From Blastocystis sp. Blastoise (taxonomy: Eukaryota; Protista; Bigyra: Opalinata), in NCBI GenBank assembly GCA_039096225.1, contig JBBPEB010000005.1, positions 930,001 to 994,000 of the forward strand: DNA of 64,000 bases, written 5' to 3'. Shown one piece after another: positions 12,323-40,053 of the stretch. Made by a program: the position numbers and the translations under genes. Position 1 is the stretch's first letter. Each line of letters opens with the position of its first letter. The notes beneath the pieces were generated by a model that was not told the origin of the DNA, ran no database searches, and saw nothing but the letters and a program-made list of their open reading frames with translations.

Positions 12323-12492
12323 TTTAATAATTATTGTTTATGTATTTTTTAAATAAAAAATAAAATAATAATGATATTTTATAATTATAAAATTATTTGA
12401 AATTCATAACAAAACAAATGATTGGAATATAGAATAGAATAGAATTAATTAAACAAGTTAACGTTAAGAATAGTAAGTAAGAAATATTAAAT

Positions 12493-16212: not shown

Positions 16213-16249
16213 GCCGCAGGTCCGGGGCCTAACGGCACCGGACCGCGGC
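16213..16249 (-). terminator. Helitron 3' subterminal GC-rich hairpin (rolling-circle termination signal)
   Basis: Minus strand GCCGCGGTCCGGTGCC-GTTA-GGCCCCGGACCTGCGGC, then GTGACC-CTAG; identical in copy B. Confidence 0.85.
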
Positions 16250-16410
16250 TGCAATGAATAATAAGTGTTTTGTTTTTATTCACTTTCTTTCCTTATTATC
16301 TACTATATATTATATAATATATATTATTTATTAAATATTATCTATAATATGTTACTTATTATCTATAATATGTTACTTATTATATATTATATATATTATT
16401 TTATTAACAC

Positions 16411-16480
16411 TTCTTATACTCTATATGGAGAGTTACAATCATATATTGATTGTAATCAGGTTCAATTCCTGATATAAGAA
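16411..16480 (+). ncRNA. tRNA-like cloverleaf 1 in Helitron A
   Basis: Stems TTCTTATA/TATAAGAA, CTCT-ATATGG-AGAG, TACAATC/GATTGTA and TCAGG-TTCAATT-CCTGA (B-box-like). Confidence 0.6.
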
Positions 16481-17879
16481 TTAAAATTTACTTTTGAATA
16501 GTATCTGAAAAACTAAAAACAATACTATAAAAAAAATAAGAAATCGTTTTTGAATCATTATATTTGTTATTTATTATTTTAAAAATATATTTTGTATTTA
16601 TAAATAGTTGAGTTACTGCTTTAATTATTATGGAGTTTCTAAAGCTAATAAATTTAGAAATGGGTCACAATGTTAAGTATTGAAAGTCATTATTATGTAA
16701 AATCATTTTAAATAGATTATAATAAGGTAGTTTACACTTTCTTTAACCATTTCATAAAACTAAAACGAATCTAACACAACAAAGTCAACATTCATTTTCA
16801 CTTTAACGACTTAAACACATAGTTTTAGAATTAATATTAATAAAGTCACTCTAAAAAGCATTTCTATACATAAAAGTGTCAACAATATCGCTTGTAAAGA
16901 GACTTCACCATTTTGATATCCAGTGTATCAAAATAGTTTTAGACATAACTTTCACATAGTATAGATCTCATTATTTCATATATTACTTATAGTTGAATGT
17001 CTTGAATCTCTGACCTAAAGACCCTTTTTTATACATTTTGAAAAGTTAACACACTTATAGTTAATTTAAAAAGCTTATATTTTAACACTATGCTCAACAT
17101 AACTCTATCAATACATTAGCTACCATTTTGACACTCTTTATAAACATTTTTCATTTGGTCATACACTTTGTCAAGAGTATTTTTGTCCCTCCTTTTAATA
17201 TAATTCAGACTATAAATAATAGTTTGATAAATAAAATGTTTTATATTGAATCTCGTCCTTTGGATAATTCATTTCTACATTTTAAAAAAATAATCCCTTT
17301 AAACTTGTTTTTAAAAGTCAAAATTTTCATAGTATAACAAAAACACAATTTTAAAAGAATAGACTTACTCTTTAAAATTTCTGAACAACTCAAACGCATT
17401 CTTAATTCACTTGTCAAAAATGAAATTCTCTTATTTTTTAATATGTTGTAGAGTACATGTTGTTCTATATTAAACAATTTCTATAATTTTAAATCTCTTA
17501 ATTTAATAACCTATTTTTTCACATTTCTTATTGCTTAAAATTTTACACATAATTAAATATATAAATGAAAGTGGAGAATACAAAACTTAATAATAACTCA
17601 ATCATTGATGTAATTATATCGCTAGTCTATATCAGATTAGGTGATAAATGAATGTTATTATAAATTAAAACAATATTAAGGACCACATACTAATAACATT
17701 AACTAATTTCAAAATTATCTTAATAGTAAGCACAATAAAAATTATAAAAAACGAACAAAACAAAAATAAATAAATAATACTAAGAAAACAGATAATAGAA
17801 AGATATTATCTGTGAAAAAAAAAAATAATAATAATAAACAAAGCAAAACAAAACAAAACAAAAATAAAATAATATGTTA

Positions 17880-19079
17880 AGTATGCCAACCAAATTAGAA
17901 GAACCTATAGAAATAAAAGATAAATATATATATATATACCTTCAGCATTAAAGAACTATTTACACCATCACTATATAGATAAAATATATAGATATATATA
18001 TTAAAAGAAATATAAATATTTGTTATATATATATATATATATATATACCTTTAGATATATTTTTATTATTAAAATAAAAGCCAACATTAGGGTGATAAGA
18101 TCCCCTATTAGAAAAGACACCTATATATAATAAATAATAAAAAATATATAAACAATAAAAATATATATACCTTCTAAAGAAGGAACAGAAAAATAAGTAT
18201 CATATCATAACTGACTTGAAGAACCTATATATAATGATAAGATAATTAATAAATTAAAAAAAAAAAGAAAGGAAGAAATAAGTATATACCTTTCATTACC
18301 TATAATAGAAGACTCGATCAGAATAGAAGGACCTATATATAAATAATAAATAAAAATAAACTAAAATAAATTAAAAAAATAGACATACCTTAATTATTAA
18401 CACCTTCAGCAACCACACACACAACAATAAAAGAACCTATAAAGAAACAGTAATAGACAAATAATAAATAAAAAAATAATAATAATAAATGAATGACAAT
18501 ATATATATATACCTTTAATACCATAGGAACAGTCTATCTGATCACCAACAACATCAACAGCAGTATTGAAAGCATCAGAAGAACCTAAATATATATAAAA
18601 GTAAAAAAAGAAAAATAAATGAATGACAACATACCTTCAACACCACACAGACATCTATCATCAACACCACTGTCAACATGCACAGCAACTGAAGAACCTA
18701 TATATATATATAGAAATAATAAAAAAATAATAATAAAATATAAAAATAAATTAAATGATTGGCAACATACCTTCAATACAATAAGAAGAACCTACAATCA
18801 CATCATTAGAACCATTAGCATCATTTAAAACAACAGAAGAACCTATAAATAAATAAAATTAAAAAAATAAAAACAAATCATTGACAACATACCTTCACAG
18901 TTAGCATAGCAGGCAACACCACAGCCTCCGTATGATACAAATAACATAGAAGAACCTAAAATAATATAATAAATAATTTAAAAAAAAAAGAAATGGAAAA
19001 TATATACCTTTAAGACCATCAGAGCAAGTAATACCAAGACCAAGAACATACACAACTGGATCCTATTGAGTAGAAGAAC
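17880..19079 (-). pseudogene. Multi-exon cargo gene (fragment) in Helitron A with repeated symmetric exons encoding GSS...(E/K)G units
   Basis: GT-AG introns at 18956-19007, 18843-18892, 18698-18770 and 18585-18634 separate exons of 72/63/72/63/72 nt. One in-frame TAG; further short exons downstream; 3' limit approximate. Confidence 0.6.
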
Positions 19080-19509
19080 CTGAAAGTTTTTGAGAAATGT
19101 ATATTTTTCCATCTACACACTTCGATCTTGACAGCATCATGCCTTCTGAGGCATCTTAGATAATATTTTAATTATAAAAAATAAGTGTTTTCTCTTAATA
19201 TAAAAATTGTGTTTATATTTCCACTTTTAAAGAATAGGGTCTATTTTAAAAATATGCTTCTTAAAAATTAATAGAAATTAAAAAACCCTTGAATTTTCAT
19301 TGATTTATTTACAAAAGTAATAATTGGGTCATTTTCTATTAAAAATATTTAGGGTACCCAAAAAACATAGTTTTTTACATTTTTTAAATATTTTATTATA
19401 TTGATTGACTGAGTATGTTTTATTTATTTATTTGATATTGTTTAGTTATTATTATTATATTTATTTGTATATATTGATTTATTCATTTAAAATATTTCAT
19501 TTTCTATAG

Positions 19510-19944
19510 GATTGTTTTGTATTTGTCTTCGTTATAGTGGTGAAGTGTTCTTGAAGTGGTCTTGGCTGTGTAAAATGGTTTATTTATGATCAGGTATATA
19601 AATATATTATTTATTTCTTAAGATCTGTTTTTCTTTTTGTTAATTCGTTTTTATTATTTATTATTTTTATTATCAATATTATTTATTTAGTCTTTACATA
19701 TAATTTATTCTATATATTATTAATAATTTTTATTCTATAGGAAAGAAACTTCAATGGATGTGTTGTGGTCTTCGTTGCTAAATATTTTCCTTCTTTAATC
19801 TGTCGTTCAAGGTTATTTTAAAGGTATATATTTATATTTTATTTATTATTTTTATTATTTATTGTTTACATTTTTTTTTATTATTTATTTATTTATTTAT
19901 TATTTATTTATTCATTTTTTTTATATGTTTATTTATTTATTAAT

Positions 19945-19975
<31 letters not shown>

Positions 19976-20050
19976 TTATTGTTTATTATTTATTTATTTA
20001 TTTATTTATTTATTATGTTTATTTATTATATATAGGTTTAATATTCTTCT
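19510..20050 (+). other. Divergent spliced unit in Helitron A (exons 19510-19593, 19741-19823, next acceptor at 20035), no clear ORF
   Basis: TATAG|G acceptors and AG|GTATAT donors are kept in both Helitron copies while the intron bodies diverge. Confidence 0.45.
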
Positions 20051-20491
20051 TAGTTTTTTTTTTCTTCTTTCTATCTTCGTTCTTCTTCCTTCTTACTTCT
20101 TCCTTCTTCCTCATCCTTCCTACTTACTTCATTCTTCCTTCCTTCTTCTTCCTTCTTCCTTCTTCATTCTTCCTTCTTCTTTCTGCCTTCTTTCTTTTCA
20201 TTCTTTACTTCTTCCTCCTTCTTCCTTCTTCTTCCTTCTTCCTTCATTCTTCGTACTTACTTCTTACTTCTCCCTTCTTCTTCACCTTGGTTCTTCATTC
20301 TTCTTCCTCCTTCCTTCTTCCTTCTTTCTTCTTTCTTCTTCCCCATCCTTGATTCTTCCTACTTCCTTCTTCCTCATCCTTCTTTCTTCCTTCTTCTTCA
20401 TCCTTCCTTCTTACTTCTTCATCCTTCCTTCTTAAACTTCCTCCTTCCTTCTTCCTTCTTCCTTCCTACTTCCTACTTCCTACTTCCTCCT

Positions 20492-20565
<74 letters not shown>
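20045..20565 (+). repeat. Polypyrimidine (CTT/CCTT-rich) tract followed by a (TA)n microsatellite
   Basis: Directly visible; the counterpart at 42233-42863 is longer. Confidence 0.9.
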
Positions 20566-20587
20566 ATTATTATTATTTATAAACTCC

Positions 20588-20654
20588 CTTTATGCTCTAG
20601 AAGGAGAGAAACAATCATTATAGATTGTTTTCAGGTTCAATTCCTGACATGAAG
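20588..20654 (+). ncRNA. tRNA-like cloverleaf 2 in Helitron A
   Basis: Stems CTTTATG/CATGAAG, CTCT-AGAAGG-AGAG, AAACAATC/GATTGTTT and TCAGG-TTCAATT-CCTGA; T-run downstream. Confidence 0.65.
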
Positions 20655-22932
20655 TCTTATTTTTCTTTTTCTTTAATATTTTTTACATATTATATATATA
20701 TATATATTTTCTCTTTTTTTAAACTTATTTTTATCTCTTTTAGATTATACCTTTTAAATTTTGACATTATATACATATATCTAACTGTTTATAGTTTTTT
20801 TAGACTTCCTCTTCTCAACAACAGTCACAATGAGAACAAATCCATTTTAACTCAAACAACTAAGTCATCTCAAAACTGTTTGAATCAATTAATATAGACG
20901 TCTATGACATAATTTATCAATTTAAACTGATTTTCAACTCTCAAAAGTAAGCAAACCAAACACACATGTTGACTTTAAAACGTTAAACTCAGTATTAAAA
21001 GATAGTTTTTATAGAGTGGACATAAAACATTGATTTAAACAAAAAGGAATGGAAACAATTCACTCTTGATACAACTTTACCATTTGACAAAACACTCATC
21101 CACAATATTTTCCAAAGTTCTTTTAGTAAAGTGTTTATATAGACATATTATGTATAAAATGAAAGTCAACTTCTTGAATCTCTTTGTTTAAGACAGTGTT
21201 TAAAACATTTTGACAAATTGACAACCTTTAACTTGCTATTTAAAGTTAATATTTAAAGAATAGACTTGATTCAGACATATAAACACAACTGTCATCACCA
21301 TAACACTTTTAAAGACACTTTACCATTTGCTCATACACTTTGATCAAAATATTTTCGTCCCTTCTTTTGACATAATATAGGTCATACACTCTAGTTTAAT
21401 GAATAAACACTCTTATTTTGAATCTCGTCCTCTAAGTCACTCATTTTTACATTTATTTAAATTTAAGACCCTTAGAGTTGACGTTTTAAATCAATTTTTC
21501 TACAGTGCACGAAATTCACGATTTTGATCAAACTGAAGTAAAAATAAATTTTAAATAATAGTCACAACCCTTCACACATCCACTCTTTAAAAATTATTTT
21601 AACTGTACTTTTGATATGTTGTAGGGCTACTATAGCTGTACACTAATTAATATCTCTAGATTTTTTATTCATAGTCTAAGACTATGTTTTACACATTCTT
21701 TTGAATTTGACAACCTTAAACTATTTATTTAAAGCTCTTATTCATAGAATAAACTTGACTTAACATTCTATACACATATGCAAACCCTTTTTCTTTTTAA
21801 GACACATTTTGTCATTTGGTCATACACTTTGACCTTCATAATTTTGACTCTTCTTTTAACATAGTATAGAGTATTATCTCTAGTTTATTAAATAAAAGTC
21901 ATTATATTGAATCTCTCACTCTAAGACCACTTAATTCACATTTTTCAAAATTGTCATACTTAAACTCATTATTTTAAGACTCTGTTTCTACTATAGTAGT
22001 TTGATGACCTATTGATTACTATGATACAATATTAGTCGATTATAAGAAGATCGAAGAAAATATCGATCACTCAAAAATCGTCTTCAGGAGCTCAAAATCG
22101 CTACACCTAGGTTTTCTGACCTCCTGAATCAGAATATGATGTCAAATTAAGAATCTAAATTTGACCGTTAAGGCCTCACGTGTTCAATATGAAAAAGTAT
22201 TAAAAAATAGATAAATATAAAGAATAAACACGGATAACGTATATTGTGGGATTGAGAAAAAATCAAGTTTACCCCATGTTTATTTTCCAATTATCTGGTC
22301 AACAATTTTTATCGGGGTCATCCCAAAGAGCCAATCAAAAACGACTCAAAAATCATGTTTTCTGCTCTTTTATTAATAACTTTTTAGTTATAAATAATAT
22401 CGCTTAACTAAATATACGGTGCACAACTACACGTTATATCGTATTGAACTGTGTTTCACTCAAAAGTTAACTCCCCGTAAGTTTAGAGGAGTTGCGGCGA
22501 CAAACTATAGTATATAGTAGCCAATCAAATGCATTCTCCAAAAACTGACCAATGGGAATTTTTTTGCCTATTCTCATATATATAGTAATGATATCAGTGT
22601 ATGGTCAATCCACTGATTACTTATATCCTATTTCATTAAGATGTTTTACTAATGAATATGAGAATAATATTCATGTTATTGATACTACAAATCTACCTTA
22701 TTACTATTCGAATGGTATTAAATATGAAGGTATATCAAATAAGATCAATAAGAATGTCTATTATTGTAATCGTAAATTATTAAAGTTATTACCTCATGAT
22801 AATATGTTCTTTATTACTTGTGATTATCCTTGTGTTGTTTTATTAACTATCTCTTATATATAAATATTTTAATTCATTTCATTTAAATTAAAAAATGTTT
22901 TGTTATATTATTCATTTAAAAATTATTAAAAA

Positions 22933-23355
22933 ATGGAGCCTAAATCTGTATCTGAATCCTTACATTCTTTATCAAGTACAAGTTCAACAAGTTCAGATAG
23001 TTCAACAACAACCACATTATCCGAAGAAGAAATAGAAAAGAAAAATACTTTATTAGAATTTATTATAAAAGCTATAAAATGTTTATTTGAGAAATCAACT
23101 GAATTCTTTCAATTAATTGTTAAAAATATAGATATTCATTGTAATTGTTGTAATCCACAAACAAAGAAAGTCTATTATAAGACAATGAAAATACAACAAA
23201 CTATTATTGAAGAAGAAGTCAAACATATATCAGAAGTCTTGAATGAATTAGAAGAAATTGATTCTAATCAAAATGAATCAATACAAGAATTAGCTGTTCA
23301 ATTAATGAAATTAAATATAAGTGTTGATTCTATTGTTCAATCTCTTCATTTATAA
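22933..23355 (+). CDS. Hypothetical viral protein, 140 aa (Ser/Thr-rich N-terminus, CxCC, coiled coil)
   Basis: Protein is identical in copy 2, with silent nucleotide changes. Confidence 0.8.
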   Translation: MEPKSVSESLHSLSSTSSTSSDSSTTTTLSEEEIEKKNTLLEFIIKAIKCLFEKSTEFFQLIVKNIDIHCNCCNPQTKKVYYKTMKIQQTIIEEEVKHISEVLNELEEIDSNQNESIQELAVQLMKLNISVDSIVQSLHL

Positions 23356-23422
23356 TTCTATGAAATGTTATAAAATATTAATAATAAATTTGTTTTGTTT
23401 ATAAATAATTTAATTTTTAATA

Positions 23423-25219
23423 ATGCAATCAACAGGTTATTCAGATAAAGATTGTGAAGAATTCTTTACAAATTGTATAGATCAATTATTACATTGGAAG
23501 AAAATACAATTATCAACAAGTATAAATTGGAAGAAATGGATAAAGACAATATGTAAGAAATTTCGTAATGAAGAACGAATTCAAATAGATGATATGGAAG
23601 AACCATTCTTTTGTGTAGAAGTCTTAACAGATCCATTTCAATTTCAAAATGTTATGCAACATACACAAACAGAAGCTCCTGGACAACAAGGTGGATTATC
23701 CAATACTACTGTAGCTAATTATATGCAAATGATTACTTATATAATGAAGAATATATCTATTTGTACAGATGATGAAGATATCATTAATTATAAAGCATTT
23801 ACTCCACAAAATATAAAGAAATGGGAACATTTATGGGGTTCTTTACAAATAGATGCTACTTATTCAAGACATTATGAAATTACTCAGAAAATTATTAATT
23901 GTGAAGCTGATTGGGGAGAAATCATTAATATCACCAAAAAGAATTATTTAGAAAATCCTAATGATTTATATTATGTGAATAGTTATTTATTAGTTTTAAC
24001 TTATGATACATTATGTGCTCGTAATGATTATAATGATTGTGTAATCTATACTCGTGGTCAACAAATTCCTTTATCGTTAAGAAGAACAACCAATTATATT
24101 GATTTAAATACTTTGACTATTCATGTGAATGATACAAAGAATCGATTTGAAATTGGTAAGAATGAATATCCTACTTATCAGTATTTATCAGAAGAATATC
24201 TAAATGTCTTAGCTAGATCCTTACGTTTATTTCCAAGACATTATTTATTTGTTACTGAGAATGGTGGGAAAGTACGTGATTTGAAATTTGGTGATGAATA
24301 TATAAAACCTCATTTAGGATGGATTTATAAAACACAACAGAATAATTCTTTAATTAATGGTTGTGATATTATAAGACATTTATTTGCTCAATATTATTAT
24401 AGATTATCAAGAGAAGCACAATTCCAACATAATGATTCAGAACATGAATCTAAAGGTGTAGAACTCTTTGAAAACTCTATTATGAAGATGTTACATAGTC
24501 AATCAACACATATGGAAAATTATATATCTCCTTATTTATCTTCTCATTCAACTAAATTACAAGATTTAGATAATAAAACAAGAACATTTCATATTGATAT
24601 GAATAATATTACTTATACAAGAGAAATTAATCAATTAAATAAATTATTATTTTTATGTAAACGATTTAATGATCGTATAGAACAATATGATGAAGATTAT
24701 GAAGATGTATTTGGTAAAGAGAATTTCAATATGAAATCAGAATCGATATTATCTACATTAGAACAATATTCATCAGATAATGATACTATAATGATTACAG
24801 TAAGATATTATAAAGATCTATTAAAGCATAAGTATCCTGATAAAAACGATTTAGAAAATGAATTACCTGTAGGATGTTCATTAGAATCTGAAGAAGTTCC
24901 AGAGAATTCTAGAGATCGTTATAATCGTTTTATACGTAATAAACAATTATTACCTGATCATTTACATAATAATACAACAGATTCAGAATTAACGAATACT
25001 CAAGCATCTCTTATGCAACAGAATACCCAAGATGAAAACTCTACACCTATAGTTATGAATAATTCAGATACTTATGCATTACGTAGTCTTTCTACTATGC
25101 CTCCTTTAGAACCTATTCATCGTGGTCATGGTTTATTGAAAAAACATAAAAGTAATGCATTCTTTAAAGTCAAAGTCCCTAAAAAACATTTTCATGGAAT
25201 TCAATTTAAATTTTATTAA
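23423..25219 (+). CDS. Tyrosine recombinase, long form (598 aa)
   Basis: Catalytic pattern CARNDY (R), VNDTKN (K), DIIRH (R), HSQSTHMENY (H, Y at +9); aligns motif by motif with the 315-aa recombinase. Confidence 0.75.
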   Translation: MQSTGYSDKDCEEFFTNCIDQLLHWKKIQLSTSINWKKWIKTICKKFRNEERIQIDDMEEPFFCVEVLTDPFQFQNVMQHTQTEAPGQQGGLSNTTVANYMQMITYIMKNISICTDDEDIINYKAFTPQNIKKWEHLWGSLQIDATYSRHYEITQKIINCEADWGEIINITKKNYLENPNDLYYVNSYLLVLTYDTLCARNDYNDCVIYTRGQQIPLSLRRTTNYIDLNTLTIHVNDTKNRFEIGKNEYPTYQYLSEEYLNVLARSLRLFPRHYLFVTENGGKVRDLKFGDEYIKPHLGWIYKTQQNNSLINGCDIIRHLFAQYYYRLSREAQFQHNDSEHESKGVELFENSIMKMLHSQSTHMENYISPYLSSHSTKLQDLDNKTRTFHIDMNNITYTREINQLNKLLFLCKRFNDRIEQYDEDYEDVFGKENFNMKSESILSTLEQYSSDNDTIMITVRYYKDLLKHKYPDKNDLENELPVGCSLESEEVPENSRDRYNRFIRNKQLLPDHLHNNTTDSELTNTQASLMQQNTQDENSTPIVMNNSDTYALRSLSTMPPLEPIHRGHGLLKKHKSNAFFKVKVPKKHFHGIQFKFY

Positions 25220-25263
25220 TTTTAAAACAAAACAACTTTTTATAATAAAAAATAAATATATAT

Positions 25264-28200
25264 TTAATTTGGTATAGCATATAAAGTATTATCTATTAAA
25301 ATTCGTTTTGTTGATGACGTATTATGATATTGATCTTCACTATAAACAATTTCTTCTTTCTTAGATAAACAATTGGATAAACAGAATAAATCTGTATCCA
25401 CACATTCATTATAAGTATTATCAATCATTAAACCACAAATACCAATAGCATTCCCCCCCTTATAGAAATTTGAAGTATGTTTTCTATGAATATTCACAAT
25501 ATCTATAGAATTAAATGTATCTTTACTACTTAAACAACCAAATAAAGCATTTGTAAATTTATCTAAATCTTTCTTAATCGTAAATTGATTATTATTATTC
25601 ACTTTCTTATAACTATTAAAAATATCTTCAATAGTAACTACATTCAAATAATAAGGATCTATAGTAATATGGTTATCAACAAAAGATTTCAAATCATATC
25701 CTTCTGTACTACGATCAAAGAATCGTTTCTTACATTCACTTATATGATATTCATTATCTAATTCATGCATATCTAATTGCATACTAGAATAGAAATAATT
25801 ACTTACTAGATAACTAAAGATAATAGAACGATTCTGATAGAATTTATCGGATAGAGTATAATCCATTTCATAATGATTAGGTTTCAATCTCTTTTCTACT
25901 GTCTGTTTACGTTTAGGTAAATTATGATCTACATAATCTTCATATAAATTAGCATTACCAGGAGGGAAATAACGACAACATGATGGTAAGAAACAAACTC
26001 TTCTTTCAATAGGACCAGCATTCACAGCAGTAGGTTGGATATTACTTGTCATAAATAAAGTACCCGTGAAATGAACTTTTGTAAATATATTACTGAATAA
26101 TTTACGAGCACTAGCACCTTCTTTCTTTTCTGCTATTTCTTTAAAGACTTTAGAAGAGAATGGATTGAATGTTTTCTTTCTACCAGTAACATCTTCTTCT
26201 ATTAATTCATTCATATAATACATTGTTTTATTAGACATATCTACAATCTTAGGAGCTATAGATGTTTCTTCTAAATTATCTGGATTTACTATAATACATT
26301 GATTACTACCTACAATACGAGAAATTAAATCAGTTGTTATTGTTTTACCATTACTACCTGTACTACCATATAATATATAAGAAACTGTTTTCTGAGTATT
26401 GACATAGAAAGCAGTGGTTAAGATACGTAACATAATACTTTCATATTTTTTATCGAATTCACAATATCTTGCAATATGTTGTTCAAATAATTGGATAATA
26501 TCTTTCTGTTCATTATTTATATTCCAACTTACATTAAATTCAGTATCAATTAATAAATCTTCAAACACCATATCTTCTTTATGATATGGTTGGATATAAT
26601 ATTGTCTAGGATCTTCTTCTGTAGATTCTTTTGGATATAAATAACCAAGTTGTGTATAGATAACACGTTCTTTATGAACCATATACGTATCTAAATATTC
26701 TTTATAAGATTTACCATAAGTCTTCAAATAACGATTCAACCATTCTTTATAATGATATTCATTAGTAACAGAAGCAGACATTATTTTATCAACTATTTTT
26801 TGATGTTGTTCATTCTCTTTGGAATATAATCTTGATAATTTGAATTTCTCTACAATCGATTTCATAAATGTAGTTATTTTGGTTTCAAAGAAATTAATAT
26901 CATAATTATTCTTACAACGTCTTAAGATATTATATTCATCAAATGTATATAAGATAAAATTATCTTTATCTAATATAATAGATACAATTTCATTAAATTC
27001 TAATAATTGAAATAACATAACTAATGTTTGTGAATCTACAAGATTAAAGGATTGAATACATTCTAAAATAGACATAAATATGAAATCATTATCATCATCT
27101 TTATTAAATAATTTATTATCCATTAATATCTTCAAAATATAATTATTCGATAAATGAGTAGGATCAACTTGTATATGATTCCATGTAGATTCAATTACAT
27201 CATCACTTCGATCATGACCATAACGCAATGAATAATTTTTAAATAATTCTAATCCTCTTGTTGTATTACAAATCTGTTTTGCTGCACAACATAATTTATA
27301 CCAAGTATTATGGGATTCAAAATAATTCATATCTTCAATAGAACCAATCAATAATAAATATCGTTCTAATAAAGCTTCTTTAGATGCTGTAGTATCCAAT
27401 ATAGTATCTGTATAAATCAACATAGGAATATCTTTAATATCTTGTATAGAACATAATATAGTACGTGAACAATTATTTAATCTTGTATAATAACGTTTAT
27501 AACGTGAATATTGTTTTAATTTATAAAAAATAATAGGATTAATAATATCACTTATAATATCATCTTCATTCTTATAATTCAATAATGTTTTGAAATAATA
27601 ATGTTCATCGATTTCATCATCTATTTTCTTCCATGTTTTATTGGTATATTCTTCATATAATTTATAAGTAGATGGAGAATTATCTTTACTACAACCAAGA
27701 AACATACAACCATTATTCTTTCTGGGTTTACCAATAACATTATAATCAATGAATTCTTTTATATCTAAATTATTCATTTTACATAAATCAACCAATTTGG
27801 TATTCAGAATCATACTATTATATAAGAAAAATAAATAATCACCATTTACAAACCAATTTGTATATATATGAATTCCCCATGAATAATGTATTTCATTATG
27901 AACTGTCTTCTTATTCACTTCTTTCTTTGTATACACAAGCGAAATAAATTCTTGATTATAATAATGAATACAATGATTACACATTTCTTCTATAAATTCA
28001 TGAATAAAAGAATCTGTTAGAAAAGAAAAATCATTTGATATTTGGTGATAATCTAAATCAAACCATAATCTTCTATAATTAGTTGATGTATTACAAGGAG
28101 TACAATCAATATAATGTAATAATTCTTTTGGATTTTGGTAATTAGTAAATAGACTTTTATAAAATGGGAATGGATTTGGTATAATAATTTCACTATGATT

Positions 28201-28266
28201 ATCTTTTGAATTATCATGATTAAAGGAACCAAAAGTATAAACAAAATGAATTTGTGAATTTTCCAT
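25264..28266 (-). CDS. AEP primase(-polymerase) fused to PriCT-2 and SF3 (D5-like) helicase
   Basis: AEP motifs WFDLDY, GIHIY and FID; PriCT-2-like TWYKLCCAAK..GLELF; Walker A GSTGSNGKT, Walker B YMNE, motif C FMTSN, Arg finger ERR. First ATG at 28266. Confidence 0.9.
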   Translation of the reverse strand: MENSQIHFVYTFGSFNHDNSKDNHSEIIIPNPFPFYKSLFTNYQNPKELLHYIDCTPCNTSTNYRRLWFDLDYHQISNDFSFLTDSFIHEFIEEMCNHCIHYYNQEFISLVYTKKEVNKKTVHNEIHYSWGIHIYTNWFVNGDYLFFLYNSMILNTKLVDLCKMNNLDIKEFIDYNVIGKPRKNNGCMFLGCSKDNSPSTYKLYEEYTNKTWKKIDDEIDEHYYFKTLLNYKNEDDIISDIINPIIFYKLKQYSRYKRYYTRLNNCSRTILCSIQDIKDIPMLIYTDTILDTTASKEALLERYLLLIGSIEDMNYFESHNTWYKLCCAAKQICNTTRGLELFKNYSLRYGHDRSDDVIESTWNHIQVDPTHLSNNYILKILMDNKLFNKDDDNDFIFMSILECIQSFNLVDSQTLVMLFQLLEFNEIVSIILDKDNFILYTFDEYNILRRCKNNYDINFFETKITTFMKSIVEKFKLSRLYSKENEQHQKIVDKIMSASVTNEYHYKEWLNRYLKTYGKSYKEYLDTYMVHKERVIYTQLGYLYPKESTEEDPRQYYIQPYHKEDMVFEDLLIDTEFNVSWNINNEQKDIIQLFEQHIARYCEFDKKYESIMLRILTTAFYVNTQKTVSYILYGSTGSNGKTITTDLISRIVGSNQCIIVNPDNLEETSIAPKIVDMSNKTMYYMNELIEEDVTGRKKTFNPFSSKVFKEIAEKKEGASARKLFSNIFTKVHFTGTLFMTSNIQPTAVNAGPIERRVCFLPSCCRYFPPGNANLYEDYVDHNLPKRKQTVEKRLKPNHYEMDYTLSDKFYQNRSIIFSYLVSNYFYSSMQLDMHELDNEYHISECKKRFFDRSTEGYDLKSFVDNHITIDPYYLNVVTIEDIFNSYKKVNNNNQFTIKKDLDKFTNALFGCLSSKDTFNSIDIVNIHRKHTSNFYKGGNAIGICGLMIDNTYNECVDTDLFCLSNCLSKKEEIVYSEDQYHNTSSTKRILIDNTLYAIPN

Positions 28267-28334
28267 GATTATTTGACTTATAAATAATGAAAATAAATAT
28301 GGTATAAAATTCAAAACAAATAATATATTAAAGA

Positions 28335-28472
28335 TTCTAGAAGTCAGTTTTGGAAGCTTCTAGAACATTCAAGAACATTCTAGAACATTCTAGAACATTC
28401 TATAATAGTAAATATTACTTTATATTTTTAAATGTTCTAGAACCTTCTAGAACCTTCTAGAACCTTCTAGAA
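28335..28472. promoter_or_regulatory. Two HSE-like arrays upstream of the primase-helicase gene
   Basis: TTCnnGAAnn repeats with 10-bp period at 28358-28400 and 28435-28472, plus a single unit at 28335. Confidence 0.75.
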
Positions 28473-28582
28473 CATCCTTTTTATACTTTAGTGTTTTAAA
28501 TGTATATACAATAAACAAAACAATTTTCAATGATTTTTTACAAGTTTATAAGTAAAAATAGAAAAATAAACAAGAAAAATAA

Positions 28583-29206
28583 TTAAATTTCAATTGGTTC
28601 TTGACTATTAATATATGTACATGAATGAGGCCATCCATTTTTATCATATAAAATACCATCCCAGAAATACATTTGTTTTGAAGGATCTCTTTTAATCTTG
28701 TTAATACTCTTAGCATGAACAACTTCATAAGTATAAACTTTACCTTTTTCATCATAAAGAAATCCATCTTCCATATGGAATTTCATAATATCAAAATCAT
28801 CATCTTTAGAATTCGAATGTTCTTTAGAATCTTCAGAACATAAAATAGTAGTTCTATCACTTTCTAAAAGATCTTCAGTATTGATAATATCTTGAATATC
28901 TTGTTCTTCATTAAGTTGTTGAGTATAAATATCAGCAGCGAATTCTTCATAATCTTCAAGACCTTTAATAACCGCGTTTATACGTTTTAAAGCTGATCTA
29001 TAGTTTTCGACTTCGAAAGAAGCAAGACGTTCTTTAGATTTTGCAATACCCAATAGATTCTTTTCTCTATTCAATTGAGACTGATGTAAATCAATATCAC
29101 GAAGAACATTCTTATGAACTTCAACAGCCTTCTTAGAATTCTTAAGAAGTTCCATACGAACAGTTTGAAGACATTTACGGGAATCAGCAGAAAGATTAAA
29201 TTGCAT
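28583..29206 (-). CDS. Hypothetical viral protein with N-terminal coiled coil (207 aa from the first ATG)
   Basis: Conserved in copy 2; short HSE at 29318-29335 upstream. Confidence 0.75.
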   Translation of the reverse strand: MQFNLSADSRKCLQTVRMELLKNSKKAVEVHKNVLRDIDLHQSQLNREKNLLGIAKSKERLASFEVENYRSALKRINAVIKGLEDYEEFAADIYTQQLNEEQDIQDIINTEDLLESDRTTILCSEDSKEHSNSKDDDFDIMKFHMEDGFLYDEKGKVYTYEVVHAKSINKIKRDPSKQMYFWDGILYDKNGWPHSCTYINSQEPIEI

Positions 29207-29604
29207 TATAATCGCGAATATCGTTACAGAGAGAAAATTTATATTTATCAAAATGAAATAAATAATACATTTAAATGGAATATTAAATATTCTAGGAGAC
29301 AGTGTAGAATCTCTATGGAATGTTCTAGAAGGTTCATTTGATTGGCTAATTTTGTCGACTTAGCATTTTTTATTTGTGTTTCAATGACGAGTATAGTTGG
29401 CATCTGTAATCTGATTGGATAAAAAAATTAGTAAAACACAATTAGACGATGACGACGATGTGTCATACGAAATAAGTTATTTTATTGGCTTATTTTCCAG
29501 CTGGAAGCAATAGGCTTTTGTTAGCAACTGAAATGAAGAACTGTACACTAAAAATAGTATATTTAATATATTGTATAAAAATACTTTTGAAGGTTTAAAT
29601 AATC

Positions 29605-30132
29605 ATGGAAATTCCTGATAGTCTTTCTGCCAGTTTATCCCCTTTCGGTCAAGCCATGATATCCCCCTTGTTGAATCCATTTGAAAATAGTGTTTCTGCA
29701 AATCCTATGGCTTTACCCAATGATAATGATTTCTGTTTTAATTCGCGTGACGAAATCATGTTTGAAGATCCACCTCAAGAAATTCATCCAATCAATGATG
29801 TTTACGTATCTAAAAATCCAGATAGATATCATTCGGTTAACAATCAACCAATACAATTTCAAGATCAAGTAAATACAAATCCTGATAAGCAAGCATTATT
29901 ATTTACAAATGAGGAGTTAACAAATATATCCAGTCAATTCGAATCTTTATTTCAAACTATTGAAACAGCTGATAATATATTAAATGGTATTTATTGTACT
30001 GTTGATCATTTAAAAACAAAGATTGAAAGTCAGAAACAAGATTTGAAACAGATTCATGATGATTCTAAAGAAATTGTTTCATTATTATCCGAATATTCTA
30101 TTCCTTCTATGTCTGAAATATTTGATCATTAA
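29605..30132 (+). CDS. Hypothetical viral protein, 175 aa, acidic N-terminus and C-terminal coiled coil
   Basis: Conserved in copy 2; upstream divergent promoter region 29340-29520 contains three ATTGG (CCAAT) boxes. Confidence 0.75.
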   Translation: MEIPDSLSASLSPFGQAMISPLLNPFENSVSANPMALPNDNDFCFNSRDEIMFEDPPQEIHPINDVYVSKNPDRYHSVNNQPIQFQDQVNTNPDKQALLFTNEELTNISSQFESLFQTIETADNILNGIYCTVDHLKTKIESQKQDLKQIHDDSKEIVSLLSEYSIPSMSEIFDH

Positions 30133-30223
30133 TTATTTTTATTTAATTAATTATTTTGTTTTGTTTATTTTTTTTTTAAATTAATTACACAAAGTTTAAA
30201 TGGAGAATAGAATAGTTTCAAAT

Positions 30224-30331
30224 AGAATTCTTGAATGGTCTAATGGATCTATTAAAGAAATATGTAACCACAGTATCATGGTTCGATTCCGTTAAAATGT
30301 TTCCATTAGATTATTCAAGTGTTCTTTTTTT
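30224..30331 (+). ncRNA. Viral RNA polymerase III small RNA, VA-RNA-like architecture (~105 nt)
   Basis: A-box TGGTCTAATGG (30236-30246), B-box GGTTCGATTCC (30280-30290), T7 terminator (30325-30331), 18-bp terminal stem 30230-30247/30302-30319. Confidence 0.78.
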
Positions 30332-30377
30332 CTAGAACCTTCTCGAACCTTCTAGAACCTTCTAGAACCTTCTCGAA
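30330..30377. promoter_or_regulatory. HSE-like array upstream of the SSB-like gene
   Basis: Five TTCnnGAA units at 10-bp period. Confidence 0.75.
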
Positions 30378-30454
30378 AATTGATTCATTTGAAAAGAATA
30401 TCGTAAAATATTAGTATTAAAATACTTATATTTTTACTAAATACTTAACTAAAA

Positions 30455-31048
30455 ATGTCTACAACTGAATTTAAAAAACCTACTATTCTTGATACTTCTA
30501 ACTTTAATTTACAATGGGATGACACCAAAGAAAATGCTGTTCTTTTAAATAATAATCATCGTGTATGTATTTCTACTGATGCTACACCATGTTTATTTGG
30601 TTATATTGTTACACGTGATAAATGGACTTTATTAACAATTGAAGATGATAATCAAGTATTCTTAACTGCTTATAAAGAACTTTATCGTAAATTATGTGAA
30701 TTATGTCCTGATGGTGATATTGTTAATTTTGTACGTATGGATAATGGTAAATATAAGATTACAATTAAAGTACCTATTAATGCATCGAAGAATATTACTA
30801 TTGATATCACTGATAAAAGAGATAAGAAGATTAATATCGGTAAAGATCCTAAGTTAACTTACGAAGAAATACGTGAAAAGTATATTCCACCAAATACGTT
30901 ATGTAAAGTATTATTTACAATACATGGTATTCATCGTTATAATAACAAGTATTATATTGGTTTATATGCTCGTTCTATTAAAGTCATCGATAAATCTACG
31001 AAGAATACTAATAGTAATGATACTATTATTGATTTAACCAATTTATAA
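30455..31048 (+). CDS. Probable single-stranded DNA-binding protein (OB-fold, T7 gp2.5/NCLDV-like)
   Basis: Pattern ST..TPCLFG...helix...KITIKVP...IPPNTLCKVLFTIHGIHRYNNKYYIGLYARSIKV resembles NCLDV SSBs. Recognised by eye only. Confidence 0.55.
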   Translation: MSTTEFKKPTILDTSNFNLQWDDTKENAVLLNNNHRVCISTDATPCLFGYIVTRDKWTLLTIEDDNQVFLTAYKELYRKLCELCPDGDIVNFVRMDNGKYKITIKVPINASKNITIDITDKRDKKINIGKDPKLTYEEIREKYIPPNTLCKVLFTIHGIHRYNNKYYIGLYARSIKVIDKSTKNTNSNDTIIDLTNL

Positions 31049-31123
31049 ATTTTTAATGTTAAATTTATTTTTTATTAATATATTTGTTTTGTTTATAAAT
31101 AATTTTATAATTGAAATAAAAAA

Positions 31124-32752
31124 ATGCAAAGTTGTATATTAGGAATGCCAAGTCCTGGTACTTTTGGTATGAATTTAATTTCAACTGGAAAAGAATATAG
31201 GCGATATAATACACAACCATTACATAAAATGGATCAATATAATCCAATATTTCATGAAATAGGTCCAAATTCATCTATGCCTGTGTCTACTTTAGAAAGT
31301 AAAGAAATACATGATGGTAAAGAAGATGATTATGTAGATCGTTCTAAAACATTTGGTAAAGATGCTGTTCCACAAGGAAATGGTGCTTTAATTCGTGCTA
31401 GAGCAGCAGGTAAAGGTGTAATGAAAGCAGCTGGTCCAGAAGAAGATAAAATAGATGGTGAAGATCGTCAATATAAAGTATTAAATCCATGTAAACCAAG
31501 ACGTAAATCTGGTAGAGGTATTATTCCAAATAAATCAGAAATCAATAAATTAGAGAATAATCAAGGTTCTGGTATTGGTGATGCAATTAAAAATAAAGTA
31601 AAAGATATGTATCAACGAAATGTATTAGATATAAGAGATGCTATTGTAGATAAAAAAGCTAATAGAAAAGCTCGTGATGCATTAGCTATTTTAGCTCAAT
31701 ATGTTGGTGACGGTCATCATGATCTTGATGATGAATTCAAAAGATTCTATGAACATAAAATTAAACGTGGTGGAAAGATTCCTATATCTGTTGCTTCAGC
31801 AATTATGAATGCAATTAAAAATAAGAAAATGATTAATAATCCAAAATTAAGAAGAATGTTAAGACCCTCTATTATACCAAAATATATAGATTTAGATTCA
31901 GCTCAAAGTGGTGATGGTATATTAAGAGTTAAAAGAGGTGGTGGATTCTGGAGTGGAGTTATGAACTATGCACCAGCTCTTTTAGGTGTAGTTGATAAGG
32001 GTATGGATTCTTTTGCTAAAGGTAGAAAAGCTTATTATGATACACATTTGGCACAACAATCAAGTGAATTAAATGATATGGAATTTGAAATGGAAAAATT
32101 AAAACGTCAACAAGCATTAAATGAAATGAAAAAACAAATAGGTTCAGGAAATACAATAAATAAAATGTTTGAAGGATATTATGATGTAGCTGATGAAATG
32201 CAAGATGCTCTTGATGAAGATGATAGACTACATCCACAACCCGTTGTTCAACCTCCACCACCTCCACAACAACAAGTTGATCGACCTCCTCAATCTCAAC
32301 CTCCTCAACCTTATAAACCCATGTCTCGTGATGAACAAAGTTATTATTATAAGATTTATGGTTTCCCTCAAAATGATAAAGAGAAAGTCGATAGAAAATG
32401 GAAAGAAGATGAAAGGGATAAACGAATAGCTGCAAGAAGAGCTAAACGTAGAGGTTATGGTGGTCGAGTTAAATTAAGTAAAGCAGAATTCTTAGAACGA
32501 ATGAGAAGAGGAAAAGAAGCTAAAAAGAAAAGAGGTGGTGATTTGAATCCATTAGTATCATTTTATACAGATTTTATAATACCTGCAGGAGTGGCACGAA
32601 AAAAACGTAAAATACAAGAGGCTGATTTAAAACAATTACAAATTATAAAACAGAAAATAGATAATAATGAAACATTAAATACAGGTGACGAATTGTTCTG
32701 GAAAAAAAAGAAGTATATGTTATCAAAAAACTCAGGGGAGGGGATCTGGTAA
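31124..32752 (+). CDS. Basic virion core polyprotein precursor, 542 aa
   Basis: K/R-rich, with four GG motifs (KRGG x3, GYGG) and about seven GxG motifs; amphipathic segment after KRGG; directly upstream of the protease. Confidence 0.65.
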   Translation: MQSCILGMPSPGTFGMNLISTGKEYRRYNTQPLHKMDQYNPIFHEIGPNSSMPVSTLESKEIHDGKEDDYVDRSKTFGKDAVPQGNGALIRARAAGKGVMKAAGPEEDKIDGEDRQYKVLNPCKPRRKSGRGIIPNKSEINKLENNQGSGIGDAIKNKVKDMYQRNVLDIRDAIVDKKANRKARDALAILAQYVGDGHHDLDDEFKRFYEHKIKRGGKIPISVASAIMNAIKNKKMINNPKLRRMLRPSIIPKYIDLDSAQSGDGILRVKRGGGFWSGVMNYAPALLGVVDKGMDSFAKGRKAYYDTHLAQQSSELNDMEFEMEKLKRQQALNEMKKQIGSGNTINKMFEGYYDVADEMQDALDEDDRLHPQPVVQPPPPPQQQVDRPPQSQPPQPYKPMSRDEQSYYYKIYGFPQNDKEKVDRKWKEDERDKRIAARRAKRRGYGGRVKLSKAEFLERMRRGKEAKKKRGGDLNPLVSFYTDFIIPAGVARKKRKIQEADLKQLQIIKQKIDNNETLNTGDELFWKKKKYMLSKNSGEGIW

Positions 32753-32844
32753 AGAGTAAAGATGAAAAACTTATTCAAAATTCAATGAATTGCGATAATC
32801 CTATTATATCTGATAAAACTCGTCATGTTACTCCTAGATCCCCT
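32725..32844 (+). other. Putative -1 programmed ribosomal frameshift signal (A_AAA_AAC plus downstream stem-loop)
   Basis: Heptamer 32725-32731 is in the correct phase; stem AGGGGATCTGG (32739-32749)/CTAGATCCCCT (32834-32844); the -1 frame is open into the protease. Confidence 0.75.
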
Positions 32845-33318
32845 GATAATTTCAAACAAACTCTATCTCAATATTGTAATATACCAAATTCTTTAATATC
32901 TCAATTATATAATTATGCTTATTTAAATAAACCTACCTCTTCTGTTGCTTGTGATCGTGCTGAAAATGTTATGAAACAATTAAATAAAACGAATTCTCAA
33001 TCTTATAATTATTATAATAGTTATGATGATTTTGAACAAAATATAGATCAAGATCAAACTAAATTTAATATGATCTTTCATGAAAGTCCTAGTGATCCTT
33101 ATAATGGTCATTTTGAAGCTGTTATTTATAATGGTAATAAAAACATAGAACACTATTCATCATTAGGAAATGAACCTACTTTTTCAAAATCATTTATTCA
33201 AAATCATAATATTCAATATAATCCTATTCAACACCAAAAAACTACAAGTAATGCAAATGGTTGCTTTTATTATTCTTTACTTTATTTACTTTCTAATGGA
33301 AATCTTATGCCTTGTTAA
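32785..33318 (+). CDS. Adenain-like (clan CE) maturation cysteine protease; probably translated from 32731 via frameshift
   Basis: GHFEAV (His), YSSLG (aligns with FEPFG/FDSFG), YNPIQHQ (oxyanion Gln), GCFYYSLLYL (Cys). Confidence 0.8.
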   Translation: MNCDNPIISDKTRHVTPRSPDNFKQTLSQYCNIPNSLISQLYNYAYLNKPTSSVACDRAENVMKQLNKTNSQSYNYYNSYDDFEQNIDQDQTKFNMIFHESPSDPYNGHFEAVIYNGNKNIEHYSSLGNEPTFSKSFIQNHNIQYNPIQHQKTTSNANGCFYYSLLYLLSNGNLMPC

Positions 33319-33322
33319 AACC

Positions 33323-33567
33323 TTCTAGAATATTCTAGAATCTTTAATTTATTATATTAATATTTTGTATAATTAATTTGTTTTGTTTAATATTTAATAC
33401 TATTATGACAAAGAAACGATTTGGCAATTACTACTTAGATCGTAGTGCAGAAACTTTAGAGAATGTAAATGAAATACTGTCAGTTATTGAAATTGTTCTT
33501 ATTATTATATATATTTTACTTTACTTTTATATGTCCAAGAAACGTTCTAGAACATTCTAGAACATTC
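33323..33567. promoter_or_regulatory. Two short HSE-like arrays (33323-33340 and 33545-33567), each upstream of a small gene
   Basis: TTCtaGAAtaTTCtaGAA and TTCtaGAAcaTTCtaGAAcaTTC. Confidence 0.6.
33405..33560 (+). CDS. Small putative membrane protein, 51 aa
   Basis: ATG at 33405; hydrophobic stretch ILSVIEIVLIIIYILLYFYM followed by KKR; retained in copy 2; has its own 3' motif. Confidence 0.55.
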   Translation: MTKKRFGNYYLDRSAETLENVNEILSVIEIVLIIIYILLYFYMSKKRSRTF

Positions 33568-33662
33568 ATTTTGAACTGGCTCTATTTGTAGAATCTTTAA
33601 TTTATTATATTAGTGTTTTATATAATTAATTTGTTTTGTTTAATCATTGGTTAATTTTAATA

Positions 33663-34037
33663 ATGAACAAGAAATATCTTAGTTATTCTTATTTTTGTCG
33701 TGTGATGAAGAATCTAAAAGAAGAAGGAATTAAATCCAAAAAGAATGAAATAGCGAATCTATTAGAACAATTTTTAAATAATAATAACAACAAAAATCTT
33801 AGTGATTTGCAATTGAGTTATTGTAGAAATATGTTACTTTATATAGATGATCCTGTGATTCATCAACGTCTTGAAATGTTATTGGATAAACAATATATGA
33901 AGAATGAGAATCAATATCAAGATGATAAGAATCTTATTCAACCCAATAATATGTTTATGCCAACTATGAAAAGTAATCAACAACAAAATCAATATCAAAA
34001 TAATAATAATAATCTATCTTTCTTACCTTTTAATTAA
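33663..34037 (+). CDS. Hypothetical viral protein, 124 aa from the first ATG, Q/N-rich C-terminus
   Basis: Protein is identical in copy 2 despite several silent changes. Confidence 0.75.
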   Translation: MNKKYLSYSYFCRVMKNLKEEGIKSKKNEIANLLEQFLNNNNNKNLSDLQLSYCRNMLLYIDDPVIHQRLEMLLDKQYMKNENQYQDDKNLIQPNNMFMPTMKSNQQQNQYQNNNNNLSFLPFN

Positions 34038-34110
34038 TTTTTATATCCTTTTATTACTAGTTGTTTAGTTATATTCAAAATTAAAGCAAAACAAACATGA
34101 AAACATAAAA

Positions 34111-35046
34111 TTATTCAATTAATTTTTTAAATAAATTATTATTTTCTAAAGATACATAAGAATTAATATGTGTATAATCATTATGACATAAAGCAGAAGC
34201 AGAATTTTCTATATCTTGGAATGTATTGGTTGTAGTTGTAGCATATAATTTTCTTAATGCATTAATGGTTAATTTTGGATGGATTTGTTTTAAATGCTTA
34301 TTCACAAACCAATCAAATGCTTTAGTAGTAAATCCAGTTCTTACAGAAGATTCAAATATAAATTTACGATTTGGATTTCTTTTTAAGAGTAATTCTAGAT
34401 CTTCAATCAATTCTTTTGGTGCATCTAATTGAATTGTAGAGTATTTACCAGCAGTTTTATAATCATTTAATAGAATAGAACCAGTATGTTTCTCTTTATC
34501 ATAAACAATATAATTCTTATGAATAGCTGGATCAATAGTATCTTCTGGTGATAGAATGAATAATTGAGCATAATCAGCACGAGCAGGAGGAAGATAGGAG
34601 TAAAAATCTAATATTAATCGTAATGGATTATAATTTTCTAATTTATCGTGATATTCATGTAAATATGGAGTCGTAATACCATCTTTAATAAGATCTTGAA
34701 TTAAAGTACGTTTCTTATTATCCAGATATTTTTCATACATTGAATTGATAATCACATAAAATTCACACCATTTATTTAAAATACCTTCTTTATTTAATGA
34801 AGAAACATTACGTATAATAAATAAAATCAATTCACATAACGATTTCATTGGACTAATTTTGATTTTACGTTCATTTACCATATAATCCATGAATGAATAA
34901 GGATTCTTTAAGAATTCTGAGAACTTTTTAAATGGTAATGGGAAAATATATAAATTGAAATAATTGGTTAAACGTTTTTTCCAAATATCAGAATAATTTG
35001 AATTCTGTATAACCAAAAGATACTTGTCATAATTTGTATTTTTCAT
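34111..35046 (-). CDS. Tyrosine recombinase/integrase, short form (311 aa from the first ATG)
   Basis: PPARADY (R), LNDYKTAGKY (K), NALR (R), HNDYTHINSY (H, Y); virophage/PLV-type integrase pattern; adjacent to the TIR. Confidence 0.88.
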   Translation of the reverse strand: MKNTNYDKYLLVIQNSNYSDIWKKRLTNYFNLYIFPLPFKKFSEFLKNPYSFMDYMVNERKIKISPMKSLCELILFIIRNVSSLNKEGILNKWCEFYVIINSMYEKYLDNKKRTLIQDLIKDGITTPYLHEYHDKLENYNPLRLILDFYSYLPPARADYAQLFILSPEDTIDPAIHKNYIVYDKEKHTGSILLNDYKTAGKYSTIQLDAPKELIEDLELLLKRNPNRKFIFESSVRTGFTTKAFDWFVNKHLKQIHPKLTINALRKLYATTTTNTFQDIENSASALCHNDYTHINSYVSLENNNLFKKLIE

Positions 35047-35134
35047 TGATTTTCTCAAGTAGAATCTCTAAAACTTCTATTTTCAAAAGAATAATACATA
35101 AGAAAATCAAAATAAAATATCTAAGATTCTCATG

Positions 35135-35182
35135 TTCTCGAATGTTCTAGAAGTTTCGAGAATGTTCTAGAATATTCTAGAA
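35135..35182. promoter_or_regulatory. HSE-like array upstream of the short recombinase gene
   Basis: Five TTCnnGAA units at 10-bp period. Confidence 0.75.
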
Positions 35183-36041
35183 AATTGATATACATGCCGC
35201 CACCTAAAACCACTGGAACACAATTAGTTTTCCCAGTTTCCCCAATATAATTATGTTTTTGTGTTCCAAAATCCCTCATTTTTACATTTTTAAGCAATCT
35301 GATTGGACAATTCACGATGACGCATCCTATTTCCATAACGGTCACCCTTGTTTCCAAAAGTCTCTCGTTATAATCGTGGTGGTGGGTACATCTTTTTACA
35401 AGACCACACCACCACCAGCTTTTCTTTCACCCACTATAAATACATACCTTGATCACTTTACTCTTTTTATATAATTTTTTTTATGATTATCATGACTTTT
35501 TATATTATTTATTGATCACTATACATACATTTTTATTTTTATATATTCCCGTGATTATTTCTATTATTTCTTTTTAGATAGAACCATCCATTTCATCTTT
35601 TCTCTATATAAAGGGAGGGTCGGGGTGTGTGTTTATTTAGCACATTCTGTGCTTCTTTTCGTATTTCTTTCTGTATTCCCGTGATTATTTTACTCACTTT
35701 ACCAACGATGGAGCCATTTCCCATGAATATTCCCTGTAAAGGGGAGGGTGTGAGTGTGTATTTTATTTCTTTTATGATTACTATGAGTTTCTCCTTGATC
35801 ACTTTACGTTTCACGTTGGAATCGGAACACAAATAAATTAAAAATAAATAAACATGGGAAAAAATAAATACACACACACACTACCCTACACTCCCATGGT
35901 TATTTTACTTCAGAAATGTTAATAATTCTTCCGTCGAGAACAAAAAGGGGGGATGTCTTCCCCGCTTATGGCTGCGCGCGTCGCGCAGACTCTATGCGGG
36001 GTTTGCATACCCCCCTTCTGCAGTTCGAAGAACGGAAGAAT
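35145..36041 (-). repeat. Right terminal inverted repeat of PLV copy 1 (897 bp)
   Basis: Reverse complement of 4492-5387. Confidence 0.96.

Positions 36042-40022: not shown

Positions 40023-40053
<31 letters not shown>

Follow-up and report, generated by a model that had tools for sequence, protein, structure and literature searches.

Within the 64,000-nucleotide stretch of Blastocystis sp. Blastoise DNA analysed here (the window), a unit of about 105 nt carried by an integrated Polinton-like virus (PLV) is a real feature and likely a viral RNA polymerase III (Pol III) gene for a hairpin RNA. Its internal A box and B box form a pair that is beyond chance, and the same is true of the base pairing between the A box and the 3' arm of a terminal stem. 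The unit is probably transcribed, and we tentatively favour a reading, to which we give somewhat less than an even chance, in which the RNA acts as a decoy or substrate of the host RNase III/Argonaute silencing pathway. The coordinates of the unit, of its surroundings and of the reference features are collected in Table 1.

Table 1. Features of the candidate unit, of the viral element that carries it and of the host reference gene (positions within the window).
Feature	Position	Strand	Remarks
Candidate Pol III hairpin-RNA gene, ~105 nt	30224..30331	+	Ends inferred: predicted start A30224 or A30220, end in T run
5' arm of terminal stem	30224..30247	+	Holds A box; like viral TTCTAGAA decamer repeat
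A box	30236..30246	+	Fits TRGYNNARNNG; 10/11 identical to host tRNA-Pro A box
B box	30280..30290	+	Fits GGTTCRANYCY; 11/11 identical to host tRNA-Pro B box
3' arm of terminal stem	30302..30325	+	
T7 run, predicted Pol III terminator	30325..30331	+	Last two T overlap first decamer of array
Array of five TTCnnGAA decamers	30330..30379	.	76 nt before SSB start codon
Seven TTCnnGAA decamer arrays	5350-5389, 28358-28397, 28435-28474, 30330-30379, 33323-33342, 33545-33564, 35135-35184		
Second copy of unit, identical	51218..51325	-	In second, inverted element copy beginning near 45629
Integrated Polinton-like virus	4492..36041	.	~0.9 kb terminal inverted repeats; ~25 kb without insertion 16203-22579
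Double jelly-roll major capsid protein, 407 aa	11099..12322	-	Modelled fold closest to Sputnik virophage capsid (E 4e-12)
Capsid paralogue	12493-13965		28% identical to adjoining capsid protein 11099-12322
Primase-helicase-like protein, 1000 aa	25264..28266	-	
Upstream ORF, 175 aa	29605..30132	+	No family matched
Downstream ORF, 197 aa	30455..31048	+	Likely single-stranded DNA binding protein (SSB)
Possible tyrosine recombinase	34111..35046	-	Weak Pfam match only, E 0.08
Host tRNA-Pro(AGG) gene	2132..2203	+	Outside element; reference for host Pol III boxes

The element was originally predicted to be a Polinton-like virus, and its double jelly-roll capsid protein supports this. In addition to the capsid, it shows a likely packaging ATPase (a call that rests on a P-loop-type match), terminal inverted repeats, integrated copies and a size in keeping with the 14-40 kb given for PLVs in the available text of PMC12220804. 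No pPolB was seen in the element; other viruses, PolB-bearing, are mentioned in Blastocystis datasets (PMC8502044). The proteins of the element are 99-100% identical to Blastocystis proteins, and its helicase region is 100% identical to a Blastocystis sp. Blastoise protein whose cluster has 19 members, a cluster size from which we estimate about 19 copies of the element. The AT-richness of the window fits the tortoise-associated clade of Blastocystis (PMC10690189). The 197-aa ORF downstream of the unit is likely an SSB, as the fold predicted for a 28% identical homologue (P0056), rather than for the window's own protein, matches ASFV CP312R, Enc34 SSB and T7 gp2.5.

Elsewhere in the element, the outer ends of the terminal repeats (4492-4600 and 35930-36041) are rich in GC and have a strong predicted fold, with z of about -6 to -7, and they are possibly terminal hairpins for replication or recombination. 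A 177-aa ORF (32785-33318), for which no Pfam or PHROG match was obtained, has His, Gln and Cys residues that by eye are spaced as in adenovirus-type maturation proteases. The first virus copy also contains a non-coding insertion of 6.4 kb (16203-22579) that splits an 811-aa ORF. Read on the minus strand, the insertion opens with TC, preceded by an A, and closes with a GC-rich hairpin and CTAG, followed by a T, with no target duplication. Such ends, and the lack of a target duplication, are shown by Helitrons. A second copy of the insertion, about 85% identical, lies in host DNA (38482-44903).

The unit is intergenic, as had been claimed, and lies within the 322-nt spacer between the 175-aa and 197-aa ORFs. 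Type-2 Pol III genes were recognised by the presence of both consensus boxes (TRGYNNARNNG and GGTTCRANYCY, taken from PMC12498455, as given in its available text) at a distance of 30-60 nt, followed by a run of at least four T and with no such run inside the unit, and the candidate has the boxes, the spacing and the T run and lacks an internal one. In agreement with the original prediction, the two boxes start 44 nt apart (30236 and 30280), and the proposed T7 terminator (30325-30331) is the first run of at least four T on the plus strand of the unit. Strict B boxes occur only three times in the 64 kb, namely in the host tRNA gene and in the two viral units, and each of the three has an A box 43-44 nt upstream. 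A CAAAT motif (30219-30223) precedes the A box and also precedes the host tRNA gene at a similar distance, although such a match carries little weight in AT-rich DNA.

The strict box pair did not arise in any of 1000 dinucleotide shuffles of the element. A strict B box alone arose in 1.5% of these shuffles, an A box with a minimal B box in 9.6%, and the latter combination followed by a T5 run in 2.7%. Since the 5' arm and the start of the B box resemble the decamer repeats of the virus, dinucleotide shuffles could overstate the improbability of the pair; the control for a repeat origin consisted of 480,000 segments of randomly decayed chains of the element's real decamers, among which the strict pair was again absent (0/480,000) and a loose pair occurred at a rate of at most 1.75e-4 per segment.

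The terminal stem was recovered as described in the original prediction, with 18 bp (30230-30247 with 30302-30319) that include two G-U pairs, and so was its extension, which brings the helix to 24 positions with 20 Watson-Crick pairs, three G-U pairs and one U-U mismatch. In the predicted fold, the last pair of the helix uses the first T of the terminator, and the stem ends exactly there, while the 54-nt top is weakly structured, none of its helices being longer than 2 to 5 bp. Although no other stem of at least 18 bp is present on either strand of the element, an 18-bp stem arises somewhere in 20 of 100 shuffled elements, and therefore the stem alone is unremarkable and only its position is of note. 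With respect to that position, when the 41 nt that follow the B box were shuffled, 18 bp of pairing with the A-box region arose in only 3 of 200,000 trials, none of 1212 real windows reached 16 bp, and none of 1000 shuffles that held the boxes fixed folded as well as the unit. Matches to Rfam were all below threshold and mostly to generic miRNA hairpins, the best scoring 26.4 bits against a cut-off of 100.

It had also been argued that the G-U pairs work only on the strand that carries the boxes, and the terminal helix alone does favour that strand, with -29.0 kcal/mol on the plus strand versus -21.0 kcal/mol on the minus strand. This did not carry over to the whole fold, for which the strand preference is small because the minus strand folds nearly as well (-30.9 kcal/mol, z -5.05) as the plus strand (-35.0 kcal/mol, z -5.30). 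Three of three wobbles falling on one strand is, by arithmetic, only a 1-in-8 event.

The stem seems to be related to the seven decamer arrays of the virus, whose TTCnnGAA pattern is like that of heat-shock elements. Such palindromic arrays are confined to the virus, with none in host DNA or in the insertion and none in 200 shuffles, and the helicase, the SSB, a 124-aa ORF and the recombinase each have one of them 76-99 nt ahead of their start. As with a prophage, stress may induce the genes for replication and excision; two to three proteins with an HSF domain are listed for Blastocystis genomes (matching rows of PMC10690189 supplement 7). Together with the start of the A box that it holds, the 5' arm matches the decamer array in 19 of 22 aligned columns, with a score reached in none of 2000 shuffles, and the 3' arm aligns more weakly, at a level seen in about 1% of shuffles. 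The B box shares its first seven bases with the opposite strand of the adjoining array, and no likeness to the arrays beyond chance was found for the B-box region and the top domain. Relative to the decamer repeat, the same two bases are missing in both arms, which requires that the arms were harmonised, either by copying of one to the other or through selection for pairing. The palindromic repeats may thus have produced some of the stem and some of the A box as a by-product, and we infer that the stem derives from a repeat of the virus itself. The gene as a whole likely originated from a viral palindromic promoter repeat and a B box, and not from a captured tRNA.

The same resemblance might be taken to mean that there is no Pol III gene at all and that the unit is a decayed palindromic repeat, turned into an inverted repeat by template switching, which would at most form a hairpin in the DNA or at the 3' end of the upstream mRNA and hold its boxes by chance. 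Beyond the likeness of the arms to the decamer and the frequency of 18-bp stems among shuffled elements, this would be in keeping with the nearly equal folding of both strands as DNA (-15.1 versus -14.9) and with the start of the unit 92 nt past the stop codon of the upstream ORF. However, chains of decayed decamers failed to produce the strict box pair, the B-box region is no more like the arrays than chance allows, and the host tRNA gene has exactly the same B box. Moreover, a stem of this kind is found at the end of none of the element's other genes, an observation on which we also rejected a general rule of hairpins at transcript ends. We regard chance boxes on a decayed repeat as quite unlikely.

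The position of the unit beside an array could also mean that the boxes work in cis, with occupancy by TFIIIC or Pol III either insulating the array promoter of the SSB gene or keeping it open and with an RNA that is incidental or otherwise used. The terminator does overlap the first decamer of that array, extra-transcriptional effects of Pol III and TFIIIC on neighbouring Pol II genes are described in the available text of PMC4228148 and PMC5358760, and a change in the terminator of VA RNAII alters the expression of the adjacent gene (PMC7589676, in its available text). Nevertheless, such a role has no need of a stem of 23 bp in which the A box is sealed and which stops at the terminator, and none of the element's other arrays is adjoined by Pol III boxes. 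Such a function in cis seems to us fairly unlikely.

A third way to account for the boxes would be that the virus captured a tRNA pseudogene, now dead, or the head of a SINE. The absence of a cloverleaf noted in the original prediction was borne out by ARAGORN, which at default settings calls only the host tRNA-Pro in the window and no tRNA at the unit; a relaxed call of tRNA-Phe at the unit was rejected as noise, as it needs thresholds that yield 49-101 calls across the element. The accompanying suggestion that the unit is tRNA-derived is doubtful because its 5' arm, together with the start of the A box, resembles the viral TTCTAGAA repeat, and no remnant of a cloverleaf stands above noise. 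A captured tRNA would explain why the box sequences and their spacing match the host tRNA-Pro, a tRNA-like T arm of 4 bp around a T-loop sequence can be forced into the top at a cost of 4 kcal/mol, and tRNA genes are common in PLVs (PMC12220804, in its available text). Against this, no D, anticodon or acceptor stem rises above noise, no likeness to the host tRNA extends outside the boxes, no free copy is present in the host DNA of the window, and the pairing of the stem with the 3' arm would be left unexplained. We consider an origin as a dead tRNA or SINE highly improbable; a stem built from a viral repeat would weaken the tRNA derivation, yet the reading as a Pol III gene still stands. An attachment site for integration into tRNA genes was rejected as well, as the unit lies 5.7 kb from the nearest end of the element and shares only the boxes with the host tRNA gene.

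The second, inverted copy of the element in the window carries an identical unit. Identity of the two units was rejected as a sign of selection, since 25 differences separate the two element copies over 1885 non-coding positions and zero changes over 108 nt are expected with a probability of 0.24 without selection. Copies in the host assembly also comprise a subfamily at 96-97% identity (P0018, P0022) and a family at 39% (P0008). More diverged relatives of the virus were found at the protein level on contigs from ENA and Logan that reach 27 kb, with identities of 42-45% for the helicase over its full length, 55-63% for the capsid and 22-31% for the SSB, and single SSB variants occur on 176 and 132 metagenome contigs. 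These relatives (P0056, P0070, P0079 and P0150-P0235) are widespread on ENA and Logan contigs and were absent from the viral, JGI and phage collections searched, and the variable loops in the capsid proteins of the metagenome relatives have, by eye, a mosaic look that recombination might have produced. At the DNA level, no locus related to the unit was detected in scans of viral, metagenome and prokaryote genome contigs or by tblastn in phage records. A DNA-pattern scan of viral contigs matched four loci, all of them rejected, of which three are tRNA genes and one lies inside a 905-aa ORF.

With regard to function, we propose that TFIIIC would bind the A and B boxes, and that Pol III would start at A30224, or at A30220 in the CAAAT motif, and stop in the T run. 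The ends of the product would pair into a stem of 23 bp, about the length of one Dicer product, with a short 3' U overhang, below a weakly folded top of 54 nt. Such a duplex of Dicer length with a short overhang would have the geometry of a pre-miRNA if transcription starts at A30224, the ends being predicted. Replication of the virus would then multiply the template, and the RNA might become abundant enough to occupy the one or two RNase III proteins of the host, whose genus, apparently lacking an RNA-dependent RNA polymerase (RdRP), would have no amplified silencing response. We prefer a decoy over a guide, as no target for either arm turned up in the 64-kb window, where no site was better than those of shuffled guides.

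The host side of this proposal draws on an InterPro table (PMC10690189 supplement 7) that counts domains in eight Blastocystis genomes, of which the matching rows were used. For the three tortoise Blastocystis genomes, these rows give 2/1/1 RNase III, 3/1/0 PAZ and 2/1/0 Piwi domains, and 0/0/0 for both RdRP and the C-terminal domain of Exportin-5 (PMC10690189 supplement 7). A search of the same table by name matched no row for Dicer, vault, GCN2 or oligoadenylate synthetase. With regard to the original proposal to look for Dicer and Argonaute in the host, RNase III, PAZ and Piwi domains are present in the genus; an RNase III domain need not be a Dicer. A pathway this small and without RdRP amplification would be easy to saturate. 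With respect to transcription, the table lists tau-A subunits of TFIIIC, whereas a B-block binding domain was undetected in the three tortoise genomes (PMC10690189 supplement 7, matching rows). Our literature search yielded no published account of RNAi in Blastocystis, and the terms Dicer, RNAi, Argonaute, Piwi and eIF2 do not occur in PMC5608401.

Alternatively, the RNA might block a host eIF2-alpha kinase or another sensor of dsRNA or tRNA, in the way that VA RNAI blocks PKR. To our knowledge, PKR is limited to vertebrates. Wobble-rich stems are common to the PKR inhibitors VA-I, EBER1 and nc886 (PMC6599070, in its available text), and the unit has 3 wobbles in 24 positions. It is, however, without a strong apical stem and without GGGU-ACCC, and the host table offers no row for GCN2 or oligoadenylate synthetase, although this was a name search and not a survey of kinases. 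The antagonism of PKR type that was part of the original prediction therefore lacks support, both from the unit, which has none of the domains through which VA RNA acts on PKR, and from the host table, and we consider the block of a kinase or related sensor very unlikely.

If the RNA is made, it would be a compact example of counter-defence by RNA in a protist whose silencing pathway is minimal, and it would show a route from a promoter repeat to a gene of this type. Here we speculate further that viruses of the Polinton class that infect single-celled eukaryotes make VA-like Pol III hairpins against silencing, which in the present case would have been built de novo from the palindromic, stress-response promoter repeat of the virus and not from a tRNA. 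We hold this generalisation to be somewhat unlikely; if it is true, VA-type RNAs would represent a recurrent invention across the lineage of Polintons, virophages and adenoviruses, would not be tied to the PKR of vertebrates and would be invisible to Rfam screens.

Viral Pol III RNAs that act on the defence of the host have been described from viruses of vertebrates. The statement in the original prediction that no such RNA was known from PLVs agrees with our literature search, which was conducted without most subscription papers and found no description of one, nor any paper that treats VA RNA together with Polintons. The closest precedent among PLVs themselves is a survey of 8300 genomes, which reports tRNAs, introns and other Rfam classes (PMC12220804, in its available text), and the unit resembles these PLV tRNA genes and Rfam-detectable RNAs in being a Pol III-type gene on a PLV. 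That survey used Rfam gathering thresholds and ARAGORN (PMC12220804, in its available text), and, unlike the RNAs it reports, the unit passes neither; the term 'polymerase III' does not occur in its text, and its methods would miss units of this kind.

EBERs, vault RNA and nc886 have paired ends. EBER1/2, the TMERs of MHV68, vault RNA and nc886 are, like the predicted product of the unit, short RNAs with internal A and B boxes (PMC12498455, PMC6599070, in the available text of both). Unlike these, the unit has no Rfam match and no tRNA cloverleaf as in TMERs, and no row of the Blastocystis table is named 'vault'.

The likeness to adenovirus VA RNA, on which the original prediction was modelled, holds in part. 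VA RNA has box A in its terminal stem and is cut by Dicer into RNAs of 21-23 nt (PMC7589676, in its available text). The unit shares with VA RNA I and II the intergenic type-2 layout in a viral genome, with internal boxes and, in the predicted fold, box A inside the terminal stem, and further the oligo-U end, the wobble pairs in the stem and possibly two nearby starts; as in adenovirus, the virus has a double jelly-roll capsid. In contrast to VA RNA, it is about 105 nt instead of about 160 nt long, lacks the long stable apical stem that holds box B and lacks the central domain with its GGGU-ACCC stem and pseudoknot, neither tetranucleotide being present in it. Furthermore, the unit has no Rfam VA match at E up to 10, belongs to a virus of a protist host, and has a 5' arm that resembles a viral repeat and not a tRNA. 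As both the apical stem and the GGGU-ACCC domain are missing, the unit is not a VA RNA.

The Pol III pre-miRNA genes of bovine leukaemia virus (BLV) offer a second comparison, as they have a compact type-2 promoter that overlaps the hairpin and a stem that is independent of Drosha, ready for Dicer and ends at a T run (PMC12498455, in its available text), properties that the unit would share if transcribed from A30224. The BLV genes differ in forming a cluster of five with degenerate boxes (PMC12498455), as opposed to a single unit with perfect consensus boxes, and the unit differs in its 54-nt top, in belonging to a DNA virus of a protist and in having no target found in the window. By analogy, the unit would work like the terminal-stem half of a VA RNA or like a Pol III pre-miRNA of BLV, rather than as a member of the VA RNAs.
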